From Escherichia coli (GTDB lineage: Bacteria; Pseudomonadota; Gammaproteobacteria; Enterobacterales; Enterobacteriaceae), in NCBI RefSeq assembly GCF_003018115.1, contig NZ_CP027457.1: DNA of 64,000 nt; one strand, 5' to 3'. Position numbers and translations under genes: made by a program. How positions within the stretch are numbered: position 1 is the first letter of the stretch; the number at the start of each line of letters is the position of its first letter. The notes below the pieces were generated by a model. The model worked only from the letters and a program-made list of their open reading frames with translations, had not been told where the DNA came from and searched no databases. Positions 6,181 to 34,868 of the stretch are shown piece after piece.

Positions 6181-7149
<969 letters not shown>

Positions 7150-9294
7150 TTAAAGTGCACAGGAGACGCAGCCTTCAATTTCAGTGCCTTCCAGCGCCAT
7201 CTGACGCAGGCGAATGTAATAGAGCGTTTTGATACCTTTGCGCCAGGCGTAAATCTGCGCTTTGTTGATATCGCGAGTGGTGGCGGTATCGGGGAAAAAC
7301 AGCGTCAGCGACAGCCCCTGATCGACATGGCGAGTCGCTTCCGCGTAGGTGTCGATGATCTTTTCTGCGCCAATTTCGTAAGCGTCCTGATATAGCGCCA
7401 GATTTTCGTTAGTCATAAACGGGGCAGGGTAGTAAACGCGTCCTGTTTTGCCCTCTTTGCGTATCTCTACTTTCGCCACAATCGGATGAATACTCGACGT
7501 AGCATGGTTGATATAAGAGATAGAACCGGTTGGCGGCACCGCCTGGAGATTCTGGTTGTAAATGCCGTAGCGCATCACGTCATCGCGCAGCTGCGCCCAC
7601 ATCTCACGGGTAGGTAACGTAATACCGCTGCGGGCAAACAGTTCGCCAACTTTCGCCGTTTTCGGCTGCCAGTTACCTTGCAGATATTGGCTGAAATATT
7701 CACCACTGGCATAGCGTGACTGTTTGAACCCGGCGAAGGTTTGACCGCGTTCGCGCGCCAGCAACATCGAGGTACGCAGGGCGTGCCAGGTGATGGTATA
7801 GAAATAGAGATTGGTGAAATCCAGTGCTTCCGGCGAACCATAAGCGATGCCTTCTCGCGCCAGATAACCGTGTAAATTCATCTGCCCCAGTCCGATGGCG
7901 TGCGAGGCGGCATTTCCGGCTTCGATGGACGGCACGCTGCGGATATGACTCATATCTGATACTGCCGTTAAACCGCGCACGGCAGTCTCTACCGTGCGGG
8001 CAAAGTCGGGAGAATCCACGGTGTGGGCAATATTCAACGAACCTAAATTGCAGGAAATATCATGGCCTGTACGGGCATAGTCGAGATTCTCGCCATACTC
8101 TGATGCGCTGTTAACCTGCAAAATTTCTGAGCAGAGATTGCTCATATTTATGCGCCCGGCGATAGGGTTAGCACGGTTAACCGTGTCTTCATACATGATG
8201 TAGGGATAGCCGGACTCAAACTGGATTTCTGCCAGTCGCTGGAAGAAATCACGGGCGTTGATGTATTTTTTGCGGATGCGTTCATCGGCGACCAGTTCGT
8301 CATAGTGTTGGCTGATGGGCACATCGGCAAACGGCTTGCCATAAACCCGCTCAACGTCATAAGGCGAAAACAGCGCCATCTGCGCATTCTCTTTTGCCAG
8401 ATGGAAAGTGATATCCGGGATCACCACGCCCAGCGACAGTGTTTTAATGCGGATTTTTTCGTCGGCATTTTCCCGTTTTGTATCGAGAAAACGCAGGATA
8501 TCGGGATGATGAGCATGTAAATAGACTACCCCAGCCCCCTGACGCGCGCCGAGCTGGTTGGCATAGGAAAATGCGTCTTCCAGCATTTTCATCACCGGGA
8601 TCACGCCAGAAGATTGATTTTCAATACGTTTAATTGGCGCGCCCGCTTCCCGCAGATTCGACAGCAAAAATGCCACGCCGCCGCCGCGTTTCGACAGTTG
8701 CAGTGCGGAATTTACCGCCCGACCAATCGACTCCATATTGTCTTCAATACGCAGTAAAAAACAGGAAACCAGTTCGCCGCGCTGCTGCTTACCGCAGTTG
8801 AGGAATGTTGGCGTGGCTGGCTGAAAGCGTCCAGACAGCATCTCATCAGTCAGTTGCGTCGCCAGCGTCTCATCGCCTTGTGCCAGCGTCAGCGCCACCA
8901 TCGTGACTCGATCGGCAAAATCTTCCAGATAACGCTTACCGTCGAATGTCTTCAACGTATAGCTGGTGTAAAACTTCCATGCCCCAAGGAATGTCTGGAA
9001 ACGAAAACCGCTGGCGTGCGCGTGGGCAAACAGCGTAATGACAAAATCGCGAGAGTAGCGATTAAGGGCACTTTCATCATAGTAACCTTCGTTAACCAGC
9101 CAGTTCAGGCGCTGCTGCTGGCTACTGAAGGTCACACTGTTCGGACGCACATGCGTCGCAATAAAGGCGTCAACGGCCTGGCGGTCTTTATCGAACTGAA
9201 TGCGACCTGCGCTATCGTAGAGGTTAAGCATCGCATTCAGCGCGTGATAATCCATCGTTTCCTGCGTCAGGCGTTCTGCGGTTGTCGTTGCCAA
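7150..9294 (-). CDS. nrdE: Class Ib ribonucleotide reductase alpha subunit
   Basis: 714-aa ORF with RNR large-subunit features (NLCSEI active-site region, C-terminal CxxC tail). Confidence 0.9.
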
Positions 9295-9677
9295 AATTCG
9301 GTTACTCCTTTACGAACGTTTTCGATATCGCTTTGCGTACCCATGAGTTCAAAACGGTACAGCCACGGCACGCCGCATTTCTGAGCAATCACATCTCCGG
9401 CACGGCCATACGCCTCACCAAAGTTGCGATTACCCGAAGCAATAACGCCGCGAAGCAACGCCCGGTTGTGCTCGTCGTTTAAAAAGCGAATTACCTGTCG
9501 TGGCACCGCGCCAGCCGTACCGCCGCCGCCGTAAGAGGGCACGATCAGGATGTAAGGCTCGTCTACCTGAATCCGTTCCCGCTCATTGAGCGGGATGCGC
9601 ACCGCGGGCAGACCTAAACGTTCGATAAAACGCTGCGTATTTTCGGAGCTGCTGGAAAAGTAGACGAGCTGGCTCAT
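9267..9677 (-). CDS. nrdI: Flavodoxin-like NrdI
   Basis: 136-aa [24 protein letters not shown]...; overlaps nrdE start and nrdH stop. Confidence 0.9.
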
Positions 9678-9919
9678 GCACTGGCCGCGTGTGGCGCTGG
9701 ATGCAGACGATTGATCATGTCCGGGCGGAAACCAGACCAGCTAAGATCGCCTGCAATCACTACCGGCAACTGACGAAAGCCCTGAGCACGCAACGCTTCC
9801 GCCGCTTCAGGAACGCGATCGACATTAATCATTTCAAAATCAAAGCCCCGGTTTTCCATCGCCCGTTTGGTGGCGTGGCACTGAACGCAATCGTTACGAG
9901 TGTAAATAGTAATGCGCAT
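9674..9919 (-). CDS. nrdH: Glutaredoxin-like NrdH redoxin
   Basis: 81-aa [24 protein letters not shown] with CVQC redox motif. Confidence 0.9.
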
Positions 9920-9992
9920 GATTCGTATTTCCGTTTAAAATGAAGATACGGCGCGATGATACGCGTCGGGTTGTCTCTCTGTTGATACAGAG

Positions 9993-10039
9993 ATACTAGA
10001 TGTAGTTGAAAAAAGATTCAACCACACAATATATAGCAA
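9993..10039. promoter_or_regulatory. Candidate tandem NrdR boxes in the nrdHIEF promoter
   Basis: Two AT-rich 16-bp imperfect palindromes (atactagatgtagttg and acacaatatatagcaa) about three helical turns apart, roughly 75-120 bp upstream of nrdH. Confidence 0.4.
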
Positions 10040-10166
10040 ATAGTGGTCGAAATTACCCTGGATATGAGCGTGACGGGGTAGGGGGATTTTTGTGATTCAC
10101 CAGGCAAAAAGAAACCCCGAAGACAGGCTTCGGGGTCAAAGACGCGTATTTATTATCATTGTTGCA

Positions 10167-10496
10167 CTACGATTTGCGCATACTTAACAGTGCGCCGATA
10201 AAAATACCTACCGCAGCTGCTGTACCCACGCTACACCAGGGTCTTTCACGAACAAAAGAATCCGCGCAGCCAACGGCATCGCGTGCGGCTTGCTGGACGC
10301 GAGTACGACCATGCATTCGCGCCCTGGTTTCTTTCAGCAATGCCTGAGCTTTACTGCGTGCGGCTTCAGCTTCCCCTTTGGCGTCGCTGCCCCAGGACTT
10401 CAATACAGATTCGAGGCTGTCAGCTAATTGATTGACATCATTCTGGATATCCTGCACGCCATCATCAACGTCGTTGCGGTTCGGTCGGTTAAACAT
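10167..10496 (-). CDS. ygaM: ElaB/YqjD/YgaM-family membrane-anchored protein
   Basis: ORF 10167..10508; start taken at MFNRPNRNDVDD; C-terminal hydrophobic anchor GTAAAVGIFIGALLS. Confidence 0.8.
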   Translation of the reverse strand: MFNRPNRNDVDDGVQDIQNDVNQLADSLESVLKSWGSDAKGEAEAARSKAQALLKETRARMHGRTRVQQAARDAVGCADSFVRERPWCSVGTAAAVGIFIGALLSMRKS

Positions 10497-10647
10497 ATGA
10501 TCCCCCATTAGAATTCGATGTAATTTTCAGTGTAGACCATAATTTTCTTAACTGAGGTTCATCGCGGCTTTATGGACTTTTCTGAAAGCGTTGTGAATGC
10601 GCAATCAGGTAAGGTAGGCCCGCGGTTGATAATAACGAGGATCAAAT

Positions 10648-25630: not shown

Positions 25631-26980
25631 ATGTTAATTAATAAAAGCAACGGATTTAACGCTAGCGCAGTTTGGGGTAGTGGAAGTTATAATGAAAATA
25701 GATCTTCTAAACACATGGAGCTACTAGCTCATAGTATTGTAAAATTAATTTGTAAGGAAGCTGCATCAGAGACGTATCGCGGTGCTCTTGAAGTTTTACA
25801 AAAAATAATGTCTGAATGTATATATCATGAAGGCAACGCCTTTGTCATTATGGGAGCTGGAGAACAATTAAAACGTATTAAATATGATGTTGATGAAAAT
25901 AACTTAAAGGTATTCAATGTACACTTTGATAATAATGAAGCGTTAGTTACTGATGGTGAGCCTGACGTAGTATGTTTAAGCAAGCAGGTCTGGGAAAATC
26001 TTCTCATTAAACTAAAGCTGGAGAACAAAGAAAATACGGCTTCTGAAGTTCATGAATCAGCGAATAAAGGTGAGGTTGAGCAATTAGTTGAATGCTCTAA
26101 GAGAAATGAACAGACCCTTTTCGATAATATAAGAAAAAGTGATTTTCATGTTGGTTCACTTAAGCCAGGTAGTATGAATAGTGTTATTTTAGAAATGCCA
26201 CCAAATGTCTGTATGGAACCACGTAATTCATATGAAAACAAAATAGATGAGGTTTCATCTTTGTCAGAGCCAAAGGAACACACCATAGATATTCAAGAAA
26301 AAACAGATGCGTTTGTGAAGAAGTTCAAGGGGGTATTATTTGATAAAAATACAAGGTCTTCAGAGCTTCTGTTTAATTTTTATGAATGTTGCTATGTGTT
26401 TTTACCAAGAGCGCAGCCTCAGGATAAAATCGAAAGCTATAATTCAGCACTGCAAGCTTTTTCCATCTTTTGTTCATCTACGTTGACACATAATAATATA
26501 GGCTTTGATTTCAAGTTATTTCCAGAAGTCAAGCTGTCTGGAGAACATCTTGAAACGGTATTCAAATACAAAAATGGCGATGATGTCCGGGAGATAGCCA
26601 AAATTAACATTACTCTCCAAAAAGAAGAGGGTGGCTTATATAATCTACGTGGATTGGATTTTAAGGGATGCTTCTTTTCTGGACAGAACTTCAGTAACTA
26701 TGATATTCAATATGTGAACTGGGGAACGTCATTGTTTGATGTTGATACTCCGTGTATTTTTAATACGCCTGCTAACCATGAGAGTTATGAAAAATCATTA
26801 AAACCTGTAAGCGAAAACGGTTTAAATGGAGTCTTATCTGATCGTAATAAAAAAATAAAAATGATCACGGGTGTGGCACCATTCGATGATATTTTATTTA
26901 TGGATGATGACTTTGATGATAACTCCCCTGAGGATGCTCCCATTGAGAATAGTCCTGTTGTGAATAGTCCCCTTGTATGA
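25631..26980 (+). CDS. Uncharacterized AT-rich 449-aa protein (ypjC-like) with C-terminal pentapeptide-like repeats
   Basis: Long ORF with RBS gaggaa upstream; residues GLDFKGCFFSGQNFSNYDIQYVNWGTSLFD fit a pentapeptide-repeat pattern; position between tRNA-Ile and the pin remnant. Confidence 0.5.
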   Translation: MLINKSNGFNASAVWGSGSYNENRSSKHMELLAHSIVKLICKEAASETYRGALEVLQKIMSECIYHEGNAFVIMGAGEQLKRIKYDVDENNLKVFNVHFDNNEALVTDGEPDVVCLSKQVWENLLIKLKLENKENTASEVHESANKGEVEQLVECSKRNEQTLFDNIRKSDFHVGSLKPGSMNSVILEMPPNVCMEPRNSYENKIDEVSSLSEPKEHTIDIQEKTDAFVKKFKGVLFDKNTRSSELLFNFYECCYVFLPRAQPQDKIESYNSALQAFSIFCSSTLTHNNIGFDFKLFPEVKLSGEHLETVFKYKNGDDVREIAKINITLQKEEGGLYNLRGLDFKGCFFSGQNFSNYDIQYVNWGTSLFDVDTPCIFNTPANHESYEKSLKPVSENGLNGVLSDRNKKIKMITGVAPFDDILFMDDDFDDNSPEDAPIENSPVVNSPLV

Positions 26981-27299
26981 AGTTCTAAAAGTAGTTTTCA
27001 ATGATAAATAAATGGCTATTTTTACGAAGAGATAATAACGTAGATTTAAACAATATGTATTATTGATTGAGTAAATGGGATTATTCTTCACACTACATCC
27101 ATTTTAGTGTCACTACCAAAGAAAAAGGGGCTACGTTTTCATGTAACCCCTTGATTTATTTGGTGGGCTGGCAGTGACTGAATTGGTGCTGTAATTGGTT
27201 GAAATATTTCATCTAATGTCTGGTTCAACTTTCCTTAGCTGCCTGAAAGTTTTTTGATCTTACCCAGCAATAACAGCGTTACGGTGCACCACGCCTGAC

Positions 27300-27525
27300 T
27301 GAAGAACTGCGTGCTCAGGGTTACCACTTCAACGTAAAACTGTGGCAGGAGGTCCGGTCTGAAAAAACTGCACAGGACATCATCGGCAGGGAACGCACTG
27401 GTAGTCTGTAAACTGAACCGACTGGGGCGCAGTATGTGGCATCTTGTCGTGCTGTTGGAGGAGCTGTGCGAACGTGGTATTAACTTTCGTGCTCTGGCCC
27501 AATCTATATTTGCCCAACAATGGGG
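27300..27525 (+). pseudogene. pinH: Remnant of a Pin/Hin/Gin-family DNA invertase (pinH-like fragment)
   Basis: Plus-strand translation ...[48 protein letters not shown] aligns with the central part of the intact invertase at 58439..59005 (LSAGDTLVVWKLDRLGRSMQHLVTLIEELRQRGVNFRSL); no N-terminal catalytic Ser region. Confidence 0.65.
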
Positions 27526-27906
27526 GGACGGAAGCTGTAAAAGTAAAATAATCTGCGATCTCAGATTTATTGAGTGATTTTTATGTGAGCAGAAGATATT
27601 CATCAGAAACGATTATGTAAATCATTTTATTTTGCCGACTGCCTGATTGTCGAAAGAAAAGAATACGCCCGTGTTTCCTGAATAGATTGACTTTTTTATC
27701 CAACCACACTTCAGCGCACTGCGTTTAAAAAATGCCTCATTCTTATGCGGAATATCATCATTTCATCATGATGTCTTTGATGAGCGGTGAACACAATACA
27801 CTTGCGCTGTCTCTTCAGGATGAATCCCCTGGTCTGGTGCCTGTGGGCTGATGTTGCAGCAAAGCTAAGGTCGCTTAAACGCTACTCAGTATTCACTTTT
27901 CAGAGG

Positions 27907-30900
27907 ATGAAATTTATGAACAGGACCAGTCCCCATTATTGTCGCCGCTCAGTACTTTCCTTATTGATATCTGCCCTGATATATGCCCCGCCCGGGATGG
28001 CGGCCTTTACTACTAATGTTATTGGTGTGGTAAACGATGAGACTGTAGATGGTGTCCAAAAAGTAGATGAACGAGGTACAACAAATAACACTCATATTAT
28101 CAACCATGGCCAGCAGAATGTTGAAGGCGGGGTATCCAATGGAAGTATTATTGAATCGGGTGGATATCAAGATGTAGGAAGGCATAATAATTTTGTGGGG
28201 CAGGCTAATAATACAACCATTAACGGGGGCAGACAGTCAATTCATGACGGGGGTATTTCCACAGGTACGACAATCGAGAGTGGCAATCAGGACGTTTATA
28301 CAGGTGGTATCAGCAATGGAACGACAATTAAGGGTGGTAATTCACACATAAGTGGGGGGACTGCGAATGGAACAATCATTGATGGTGGCAGCCAACGAGT
28401 AACAACTCAGGGGCATGTCGACAGTACAACGATAAATAAGTCTGGCTCTCAGGACATCACGCAAGGAAGTCTGGCAACGAACACAACCATAAATGGTGGT
28501 CGACAGTATGTTGAACAGAGCACAGTAGAAACAACAACCATTAAAAATGGCGGTGAGCAAAGAGTATATGAGAGCCGTGCGCTGGACACGACGATTGAAG
28601 GCGGAACTCAGTCTCTGAATAGTAAGTCAACGGCAAAAAATACGCAGATCTATTCTGGTGGCACGCAAATTGTTGATAACACCAGCACCTCGGATGTTAT
28701 TGAAGTTTATTCCGGTGGCGTGCTTGATGTTAGTGGTGGTACGGCAACAAATGTTACCCAGCACGATGGTGCAATTTTAAAAACAAACACTAACGGTACG
28801 ACGGTGAACGGTACGAATAGTGAAGGTGCATTCTCCATCCACAATCACGTGGCAGACAATGTGTTGCTGGAAAACGGTGGTCATTTAGACATAAACGCAT
28901 ATGGTTCGGCAAACAAGACGATTATCAAAGATAAAGGAACAATGTCAGTTTTAACCAATGCTAAAGCTGATGCGACCCGAATAGATAATGGCGGGGTTAT
29001 GGATGTTGCCGGAAACGCGACAAATACCATAATTAATGGTGGCACACAGAATATTAATAATTATGGCATAGCCACAGGCACTAATATCAACAGCGGAACG
29101 CAAAATATCAAAAGCGGCGGGAAAGCTGACACAACAATTATATCCTCCGGGAGCCGGCAGGTTGTTGAGAAAGATGGTACGGCAATTGGCAGCAATATTA
29201 GCGCCGGAGGCTCACTGATTGTCTATACCGGCGGTATTGCACATGGGGTTAACCAGGAGACGGGCAGTGCTTTAGTTGCCAACACGGGTGCAGGGACTGA
29301 TATCGAAGGATACAACAAGCTCTCTCACTTCACTATTACCGGAGGGGAGGCTAATTATGTTGTGCTGGAAAATACCGGCGAACTGACGGTAGTGGCTAAA
29401 ACCTCGGCGAAAAATACTACCATTGATGCTGGCGGTAAGCTGATTGTCCAGAAGGAGGCTAAAACAGATAGCACCAGACTTAATAATGGCGGCGTTCTGG
29501 AGGTTCAGGACGGTGGTGAGGCTAAGCATGTTGAGCAACAATCCGGCGGCGCATTAATTGCTTCCACGACCTCCGGAACACTTATCGAAGGAACCAACAG
29601 TTATGGTGATGCTTTCTACATCAGGAATTCAGAAGCTAAAAATGTAGTGCTGGAAAACGCTGGCTCATTAACAGTCGTCACTGGTTCCCGGGCAGTTGAC
29701 ACGATTATTAATGCCAACGGCAAAATGGATGTTTATGGAAAAGATGTTGGCACTGTACTCAATAGTGCTGGCACCCAAACAATATATGCCAGTGCCACTT
29801 CTGATAAAGCAAATATCAAAGGTGGCAAGCAAACGGTATATGGTTTAGCCACTGAAGCAAATATCGAAAGTGGTGAACAAATTGTTGATGGCGGGTCAAC
29901 AGAGAAAACACACATCAATGGTGGCACGCAAACCGTTCAGAATTATGGTAAGGCAATCAATACCGATATCGTCTCTGGCCTACAACAAATTATGGCAAAC
30001 GGGACAGCGGAAGGTTCCATTATTAATGGGGGTTCACAGGTAGTTAATGAGGGCGGTCTGGCTGAAAACTCGGTGCTTAATGACGGCGGCACACTCGATG
30101 TGCGGGAGAAAGGCAGCGCAACGGGGATACAGCAGAGTAGCCAGGGCGCTTTGGTTGCAACCACCAGGGCGACGCGGGTCACAGGAACACGCGCGGATGG
30201 CGTCGCGTTCAGCATCGAGCAGGGTGCGGCGAACAATATCCTGCTGGCAAATGGCGGCGTGTTAACCGTGGAGTCAGACACCACTTCCGCCAAAACACAG
30301 GTCAATACGGGCGGACGGGAGATCGTCAAAACAAAAGCCACTGCGACAGGCACGACGCTCACCGGCGGTGAACAAATTGTCGAGGGTGTGGCGAATGAGA
30401 CAACAATTAACGACGGCGGAATACAAACAGTTTCAGCTAACGGAGAGGCAATAAAAACAAAGATCAATGAAGGCGGAACGCTGACAGTCAACGATAATGG
30501 CAAAGCGACAGATATCGTCCAGAACAGCGGTGCCGCTCTCCAGACGAGCACGGCTGACGGTATTGAAATCAGCGGTACTCACCAGTACGGCACTTTTTCC
30601 ATTTCCGGCAATTTAGCGACCAATATGTTGCTGGAAAATGGCGGTAATTTATTGGTATTAGCAGGTACCGAAGCTCGCGACTCCACGGTTGGCAAGGGTG
30701 GGGCAATGCAAAACCTGGGTCAGGACTCCGCCACAAAGGTTAACTCTGGTGGGCAATATACCCTTGGGCGGTCAAAAGATGAGTTTCAGGCTCTGGCCCG
30801 GGCAGAAGATCTCCAGGTCGCTGGCGGGACGGCAATCGTCTACGCAGGTACGCTGGCGGATGCATCGGTCAGTGGCGCGACAGGAAGCCTGTCGTTAATG

Positions 30901-33839: not shown

Positions 33840-34868
33840 TTTCTAATTTTCTCCATCCAAGGTTAGCAAGAGGATTTTTGGTTACAGCATCTTCCAGATG
33901 GTCGGGAGCGAAGTGGGCGTAAATCATTGTCATTTTTATATCGACATGGCCCAGAATATCGCGCAGCACCAGTATGTTTCCGCCATTCATCATAAAGTGA
34001 CTTGCAAATGTATGTCGTAATACGTGTGTGCATTGCCCTTCTGGTAGCTCGATGCCAGCTCGTTTTACCGCACGTTCAAAAGCTTTCCTACAAGGTGTAA
34101 ATAATTTTCCCCTATTCTTAGGCAGTTCTTCATATAAATCCTTTGAAATAGGCACTGTTCGGTTTTTCTTTCCTTTAGTCTTGGTATAAGTGATACGGTA
34201 TTTTGACACCTGATGACTCTGCAGGTTTTCGGCTTCGCTCCAGCGTGCGCCGGTGGCCAAGCATATTTTTGCAATCATCAGCAGACTGGGGCTTTGAGAA
34301 TCAGCACAGGCATCCAGCAGACGTTTAATTTCTTCCGGGGTCAGGAACGCCAATTCACCCTCAGCAATTTTAAATGTTGGCAGCCCAGCAAGCGGGTTGG
34401 GGGCTGCCAGTGGCCCAGCTTTTTCAGTGTACCAAAAACAGATGATAGGTTGCGCTGTTCAAGATTTACCGTGCGGGGCTTAACGGGCGACATAAGCGTG
34501 CCATCTTCATTTCGTACTTCACCTTTTAACCGTGCTTCGCGGTATTTCGTAAACTCACCAGCTGTCAGTTCTGAGGCGATGGGATCGCCTAGACCATTAC
34601 AGATAATTCTAAGTTTCGCCATGAGGCGCTTGGGGTCTGCGAGTGTTTGACCATACAGGGAATACCACAGCTCAATTAATTCTGATAGATGTCGCCGATC
34701 TTCCTTTTCCCCTAGCCATGGTTTTTTGTTCACTTCTTCCATTGTGAAGCTTTCAAACGCAATGGCTTCGCCTTTGGTAGCAAATTGCTTACGCACGCGC
34801 TTACCATTGCGTCCATTGGGATAGCACTCACACAACCATTTTCCGTTCGGCTGTTTTCTGATGGTCAT
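33829..34868 (-). pseudogene. int: P2/186-family tyrosine integrase, split by an apparent frameshift in a C-run (as assembled)
   Basis: N-terminal half (ORF 34341..34868, MTIRKQPNGKWLCECYPNGRNGKRVRKQF...) and C-terminal catalytic half (ORF 33829..34353, ...GARWSEA...HVLRHTFASHFMMNGG...LGHVDIKMTMIYAHF) are in different frames; frames meet at the G/C homopolymer near 34399-34403. Confidence 0.8.

Follow-up and report, generated by a model that had tools for sequence, protein, structure and literature searches.

The nrdHIEF promoter region of Escherichia coli: paired NrdR boxes over the promoter and a Fur-like site cluster at the nrdH start codon

Results

Gene layout of the ygaM-nrdH region

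The window (the whole stretch of DNA analyzed, 64,000 nucleotides) is E. coli chromosome, and thousands of complete genomes share the approximately 1 kb around positions 9920-10166 at 99-100% identity. RefSeq annotation in E. coli genomes that are 99.9-100% identical gives the order ygaM - nrdH - nrdI, and 9920-10166 is the ygaM-nrdH intergenic region. The genes lie on the minus strand, so the region reads backwards in the window. The open reading frame list and the RefSeq annotation place nrdH, the first gene of nrdHIEF, at 9674..9919 (-) with its ATG at 9919, followed by nrdI (9267-9677 (-)), nrdE (7150-9294 (-)) and nrdF (6181-7140 (-)). The product of the operon is a manganese-dependent backup ribonucleotide reductase. 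Upstream of nrdH and on the same strand is ygaM (10167..10508 (-)), a member of the ElaB/YgaM/YqjD family with its stop codon TAG at 10169..10167.

A terminator scan, an inverted repeat and a fold identify the ygaM intrinsic terminator at 10103..10137 (-), which consists of the hairpin GACCCCGAAG-loop-CTTCGGGGT (10137..10113) and the T run that follows it. The distal 65 bp of the region (10103-10166) are the ygaM 3' end and this terminator. An Rfam scan of 9600-10600 returned no match near the gathering thresholds, and its four weak matches come from the terminator hairpin. The stretch 9900-10190 has 99.3% identity to K-12 derivatives. These results identify the region as the already characterized promoter region of the class Ib ribonucleotide reductase operon nrdHIEF. 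An earlier note on this DNA had called all of 9920-10166 the nrdHIEF control region; the identity was right, the strand is minus, and the distal 65 bp belong to the end of ygaM.

Paired NrdR boxes upstream of nrdH

Tandem NrdR boxes at nrdHIEF were reportedly predicted by Rodionov and Gelfand in 2005, and those of E. coli K-12 are said to have been studied by Torrents in 2007. NrdR operators were defined here as two 16-mers resembling acaCwAtATaTwGtgt, with C at position 4 and G at position 13, separated by a spacer of 15-16 bp that gives integral helical turns between the box centres. Box 1, TTGCTATATATTGTGT (10024..10039 (-)), and box 2, CAACTACATCTAGTAT (9993..10008 (-)), are found 74-120 bp ahead of the nrdH ATG; 15 bp separate them, and the distance between their centres is 31 bp. 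Both boxes contain the critical C4 and G13, and the pair overlaps a conserved TTGAAT-17-TAGTAT at the promoter of a ribonucleotide reductase operon, as is characteristic of an NrdR operator.

The pair matches published probes exactly. The 57-nt microscale thermophoresis (MST) probe for E. coli nrdHIEF, which binds NrdR with a KD of 138 ± 32 nM in the presence of ATP and dATP (PMC12176259), is window 9988-10044 (-) with no base changed, and its stated 5-nt flanks set the limits of the boxes. A second study also carries a probe sequence identical to the NrdR site of the window and describes box-mutant and spacer-variant reporters (PMC12051234). The GFP reporters of this promoter were repressed in vivo at spacers of 15-17 bp and derepressed by box mutations or non-integral spacers, and box positions 4 and 13 were critical for recognition (PMC12051234).

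The NrdR consensus alone is unimpressive at this locus, with three mismatches in box 1 and five in box 2. A consensus-only search of the 64 kb at up to three mismatches returned box 1 and one unrelated match against 0.59 expected; this search was uninformative and was set aside as evidence. A position weight matrix (PWM) was therefore trained solely on four other boxes, those of nrdAB and nrdDG, which avoids circularity. Box 1 scored 11.8 bits and box 2 scored 10.8 bits, ranks 3 and 4 among approximately 64,000 positions, and the summed score of the pair at 31 bp was 22.6 bits compared to 13.0 for the runner-up pair in the window. Conservation was measured in 79 loci from other Enterobacteriaceae, spanning more than 20 genera and fetched with NrdH. 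The best pair sits at -118..-122 from the ATG with the 31-bp spacing in all 79, box 1 is at -120 in all of the related loci, and the conservation of box 2 across them is approximately 100%. The two 16-bp palindromes about 31 bp apart that had been proposed at 9993-10039 are thus correct to the base and coincide with experimentally bound sites. This NrdR half of the earlier reading is right and was already known.

Two single 16-mers elsewhere, at 8728-8743 (inside nrdE) and 24607-24622, score 11.9 bits each, as high as the true boxes. Neither has a partner box at 30-33 bp, and for that reason both are probably chance matches.

Promoter and predicted transcription start

The likely -35 hexamer TTGAAT (10016..10021 (-)) lies in the spacer between the boxes, 17 bp from the likely -10 hexamer TAGTAT (9998..9993 (-)), which is the last six bases of box 2. 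GGTTGAA is invariant in 80 sequences despite its position in the spacer, and across genera neither it nor any part of box 2 shows more than minimal variation. The published reporters preserve TTGAAT-N17-TAGTAT: all of the spacer-length constructs retain TTGAATCTTTTTTCAACTACATCTAGTAT, with changes confined to the bases between box 1 and TTGAAT, and the "mutated boxes" construct retains TA.TAT (PMC12051234). The NrdR boxes have also been reported to overlap the RNA polymerase site (PMC12176259). The conserved hexamers, the constructs that spare them and the overlap with the polymerase site indicate that transcription most likely starts near 9986, approximately 67 nt before the nrdH ATG. A sigma-70 scan preferred a different pair, TCAACA-18-TATCAT, which was set aside as the main promoter: both of its hexamers are poorly conserved across genera, and it is the other pair that the published constructs spare. 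Cappable-seq supplements contained no matching start-site entry for nrdHIEF. A consensus-like Fur 19-mer in Salmonella diarizonae ends 309 bp upstream of the position equivalent to the predicted start; the 19-mer then matches the "-309" Fur box of Panosa et al., which fits a start near 9986.

In the proposed mechanism, the NrdR tetramer loaded with ATP and dATP would occupy 10039..10024 and 10008..9993, with centres three helical turns apart. Box 2 covers the putative -10 and box 1 abuts the putative -35, so bound NrdR would exclude RNA polymerase when dATP is plentiful.

Two further symmetrical elements lie in this stretch. A 10-nt inverted repeat at 10001-10026, TGTGGTTGAA / TTCAACTACA, has arms that are 90% complementary with 6 nt between them. 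The repeat covers the spacer and reaches into the inner edge of each NrdR box, with its centre displaced by 2.5 bp from the midpoint between the boxes. Both the likely -35 and a CCACA half-site similar to the IscR type II motif fall within it, so this repeat may be the site of action of IscR. A search by hand for an IscR type II site found one recognizable half-site, CCACA at 10022-10026 adjoining the -35, and an IscR site was accordingly not annotated. A perfect 7-bp palindrome, TCTCTGT-ATCA-ACAGAGA, occurs at the predicted transcription start (9974-9991); it is the same in K-12-type and O157-type E. coli and is poorly conserved in other genera.

Fur-like sites over the nrdH start codon

Two models were used for Fur: a classical 19-mer PWM built from 16 K-12 operators that are footprinted or gel-shift-verified, with coordinates from Chen et al. 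2007 (PMC2189734), and a 9-1-9 PWM built from 44 sites. The 9-1-9 PWM reproduces the findings of Chen et al. 2007 around nrdH. It detects five overlapping 19-mers in 6-bp phase over the nrdH ribosome-binding site and first codons (9889..9935 (-)). The centres lie at -7, -1, +5, +15 and +21 from the ATG, mostly 6 bp apart, with scores of 5.0, 8.3, 8.8, 4.1 and 8.4 bits. Each single 19-mer is weak (8-9 bits at best). The 45-bp cluster sum of 34.6 bits is the fourth best in 64 kb, three other places reaching equal sums, and compares to sums of 35.5 for tonB, 33.9 for exbB, 32.0 for fecA and 16.9 bits for fur. All 79 loci from other Enterobacteriaceae have a Fur site of at least 7 bits at the ATG, and the median of their cluster sums is 30 bits. 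The cluster of the window is base-for-base the K-12 sequence.

The sequence from -22 to +22 around the nrdH ATG is nearly invariant across genera, synonymous positions included. The block corresponds to window 9897-9941, and more than 20 genera show almost no change in these 22 nt of the 5' UTR and the 7-8 codons that open nrdH. This constraint exceeds that of coding alone and is attributed to the Fur cluster; an mRNA-level element is a possible alternative source, and the conservation at the ATG could owe something to translation signals.

Published ChIP-exo data were used to locate Fur in vivo. Dataset 2 of PMC10164565 lists MG1655 Fur peaks at 2798593-2798627, 2798743-2798772 and 2798753-2798761. 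These are NC_000913.2 coordinates, in which nrdH starts at 2798745 (2800723 in version 3), and the version offset agrees both with the W3110 peak and with the "bases upstream of ygaC" figures of Chen et al. Conversion places the MG1655 peaks at -152..-118 (window 10071..10037) and -2..+27 (9921..9892) from the nrdH ATG, and the start-codon cluster coincides with the latter (peaks P88/P89). W3110 has a single Fur peak at +7..+19 and BL21(DE3) a single peak at 0..+12, both checked against annotated records, and six further strains, including O157 Sakai, have one "intragenic" Fur peak each (PMC10164565). The only nrdHIEF Fur site above 10 bits reported by Chen et al. 2007 (10.1 bits, "728 bases upstream of ygaC"; PMC2189734) is window 9920, at the nrdH ATG. 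The coincidence of the ChIP-exo peaks, the 6-bp-phased 34.6-bit cluster and the conservation leads us to conclude that 9889-9935 is the principal Fur operator of nrdHIEF.

The upstream peak, P87, was called in MG1655 only and by coordinate conversion covers 10037..10071 (-), together with the Vassinova-Kozyrev consensus "Fur box". This older consensus site, approximately 600 bases upstream of ygaC, scored -3.4 bits and gave "extremely weak binding" in Chen et al. 2007 (PMC2189734), and it corresponds to window ~10048. No Fur-like sequence was found at 10037-10071 in this allele, where the best PWM score is negative. In K-12, Fur may make a second contact here, just upstream of NrdR box 1.

The distal Fur-like sequence

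The earlier note had placed a Fur-box core, described as an iron-box-like AT-rich palindrome, near 10148-10166. The string it gave, tatttattatcattgttgc, is present at 10147-10165, one base away. It belongs to a distal Fur-like sequence, TGCAACAATGATAATAAATACGCGT (10142..10166 (-)), which directly follows the stop codon of ygaM and precedes the terminator of that gene. ATGATAAT lies within it at 10151-10158. The best coding-strand 19-mer is AACAATGATAATAAATACG (10163..10145), which matches the 19-bp Fur consensus at 13 of 19 positions. The string therefore exists, but it is hardly palindromic: the site is mainly one good half-site, and its 9-nt arms are complementary at only 4 of 9 positions.

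The classical Fur PWM gave the distal site 9.2 bits, rank 14 of 63,982 positions, and 20 positions score at least 8 bits. Leave-one-out scores of the 16 verified operators have a median of 16.1 and a range of 5.5-21.3 bits; the weaker ones include tonB (5.5), exbB (9.8) and fecA (10.4 bits). The score is moderate and not below every threshold, but is probably no more than chance provides in the window. The 9-1-9 PWM found only two overlapping matches, of 7.3 and 5.5 bits and 6 bp apart, and not a phased cluster around a dyad. Summed over 45 bp, the cluster amounts to 13.2 bits, and 2.1% of window positions do as well or better.

The position and distribution of the site point the same way. It lies at -228..-246 from the nrdH ATG, its centre is approximately 168 bp upstream of the predicted start and beyond the ygaM terminator, and so it is not adjacent to the promoter. 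Among 78 loci scanned, a score of at least 6 bits occurs only in one Escherichia genome with the K-12-type allele (L018), and the site is degenerate in O157-type E. coli, where the homologous bases are GAGACGATGACAAGCAGTA. The window strain differs from K-12 and BL21 by one base at 10162 (GCAACAATG here, GCAAAAATG in K-12). The K-12 A in place of C, the base complementary to 10162, raises the distal site to 12.2 bits, higher than any single site of the start-codon cluster. Fur ChIP-exo in nine strains including K-12 shows no peak at the distal site (PMC10164565). Mapped Fur positions lie elsewhere, at -152..-118 and around the ATG, and the Fur box proposed near 10148-10166 is not upheld. Most likely, the distal site is a half-site that arose by chance and plays no part in the control of nrdHIEF.

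Other Fur-like matches in the window

The consensus-only Fur search at up to three mismatches returned a single match in the 64 kb, at 22598 within a gene, and was discarded as uninformative evidence. This match (22598-22616, GTTAATGTTAATCAATATC, 16/19, 15.0 bits) lies inside an alpha-amylase-family (ygaQ-like) gene, and the K-12 ChIP-exo Fur peak assigned to ygaQ maps away from it, near window 23,900. A second strong Fur-like 19-mer (33919-33937, 14.7 bits) is found beside a site-specific integrase in a segment common to 13 of 5,426 genomes at 80% or greater coverage. Many Fur- and NrdR-PWM matches fall at 23-28 kb (23,000-28,000), which is consistent with AT-rich, probably horizontally acquired DNA.

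Alleles between ygaM and nrdH

Approximately one-quarter of complete E. coli genomes, including O157:H7, have two extra genes between ygaM and nrdH, and 1,388 of 5,421 complete E. coli genomes are without a full-length match to the window allele. The extra genes are a PLP-dependent aminotransferase/GntR-like gene and a carboxymuconolactone-decarboxylase-family gene. The module is found in about half of 80 Enterobacteriaceae species and also in other Escherichia species, and for this reason the K-12-type arrangement of the window looks like a deletion of the module. Comparison of window 10034-10170 with L001 900-3010 shows that the K-12-type and O157-type alleles diverge from NrdR box 1 outward. 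O157-type genomes have TTACCATATCTTGTGT as box 1, and comparable TTCCCATATCTTGT.. forms are seen in many of the other loci with the module. The NrdR PWM pair scores are 8.8-16.7 bits in module-type loci versus 22.6-24.6. An insertion that breaks box 1 was considered for the O157-type two-gene difference and rejected, since the variant box 1 is present and the module is widespread and probably ancestral. The two box 1 alleles, TTGCTATATATTGTGT and TTACCATATCTTGTGT, could mean that lineages differ in the strength of NrdR repression.

Discussion

The nrdHIEF promoter is a textbook case in which nucleotide status (NrdR) and iron status (Fur, IscR) are read by one promoter that turns on the manganese-dependent backup reductase. 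The arrangement that we favor has NrdR over the promoter, Fur over the nrdH start codon and a distal Fur-like sequence that is non-functional, and we place its probability at roughly 85%. Iron control by Fur would act mainly via overlapping weak sites 60-90 bp downstream of the start point. At that distance, a roadblock or a spreading oligomer is likelier than occlusion of the promoter, and Fur probably oligomerizes over 9889-9935 and blocks transcription. The expectation of combined iron and nucleotide regulation from 9920-10166 was therefore sound for NrdR, while the Fur box as it had been placed is unsupported. The correction is that the best intergenic look-alike of the consensus is not the actual seat of Fur at nrdHIEF. 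The true operator is a cluster over the start codon whose single sites are weak, and a scan for one good box would pass it by.

Two other readings of Fur control near the promoter were weighed. The main operator could instead be the Vassinova-Kozyrev site at ~10037-10071, with Fur hindering RNA polymerase or an upstream activator and the signal at the ATG secondary. Peak P87 of MG1655 at -152..-118 (PMC10164565) and the original consensus prediction ~600 bases upstream of ygaC fall there, a 6-12 bit site is centred at -127/-128 in several species or alleles (L020, L031, L033, L094), and the 8-mer CGTAATCA is reported for E2348/69 "at the same position". We regard this assignment as unlikely, because the PWM score is negative in this allele and -3.4 bits in Chen et al. 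2007, the oligonucleotide hardly bound (PMC2189734), the peak occurs in one of nine strains only, and a 9-1-9 PWM site of at least 7 bits within -152..-108 is present in just 3 of 79 loci. It is less probable again that the start-codon block is conserved for translation only (Shine-Dalgarno, start codon, mRNA structure), with its likeness to Fur sites incidental and control by Fur indirect or elsewhere. The block does hold the ribosome-binding site and start codon, the single PWM scores are modest, and the cluster sum is equaled at three other places in the window. Translation would not account for independent ChIP-exo peaks exactly there in several strains, for matches in the 6-bp phase typical of Fur clusters, or for conservation that reaches synonymous sites and extends to -22, past the ribosome-binding site. 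The start-codon cluster is the better candidate for the operator.

The distal sequence at 10147-10165 could itself be a working Fur box at which Fur in its iron-loaded form represses the operon, for instance through a DNA loop to, or cooperation with, Fur bound near the promoter. It matches 13 of 19 consensus positions, its 9.2 bits here and 12.2 in K-12 fall within the range of the weaker verified operators, its two 9-1-9 matches overlap 6 bp apart, and the functional distal Fur box of Salmonella nrdHIEF is a precedent. Distance alone does not disqualify it, since the Salmonella box acts 309 bp upstream of the start. We nevertheless hold such a role to be improbable. The ChIP-exo data have no peak there in nine strains, even in K-12 with the stronger variant (PMC10164565), and the site is not reported by Chen et al. 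2007, whose scan covered the stretch (PMC2189734). The -143 fragment, to which the Fur sites have been ascribed, does not include it, a terminator separates it from the promoter, and its score is ordinary for the window. Neither O157-type E. coli nor any other genus has the site, yet Fur control of nrdHIEF is core regulon in all nine strains, and the Salmonella box lies within a gene missing from this allele, so the two are not homologous. The 12.2 bits in K-12 and the Salmonella precedent leave a slim chance of a minor auxiliary Fur role in K-12-type strains. Slimmer still is the chance that the site is a lineage-specific auxiliary operator that arose after loss of the two-gene module, replaced a Salmonella-type distal box and loops to the start-codon cluster. 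A chance half-site is the reading that we retain for the distal sequence.

The locus resembles known systems closely. The K-12 nrdHIEF promoter (PMC12176259, PMC12051234) has the same 57 bp over both boxes, the same spacer and position and the same flanking genes; there is no substantive difference, and one base change (C for A) lies within the distal Fur-like sequence. Compared to mapped Fur binding (PMC10164565, PMC2189734), our PWM finds the same start-codon positions, whereas the site proposed in the earlier note is 225-245 bp upstream of the mapped positions and matches none of them. In Salmonella Typhimurium, mutagenesis and EMSA showed that a distal Fur box at -309 is required for repression of nrdHIEF (Panosa et al. 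2010, PMC2892513), and it is likewise a Fur-like 19-mer far upstream of the promoter. In Salmonella, by difference from the window, ygaM and nrdH are separated by two additional genes. The likely box, GCTGAAGATAATGTTTATC, which was located by scanning the Salmonella locus L027, lies inside the second of these, and the window is without both genes, which indicates that the Salmonella box and the distal site of the window are non-homologous.
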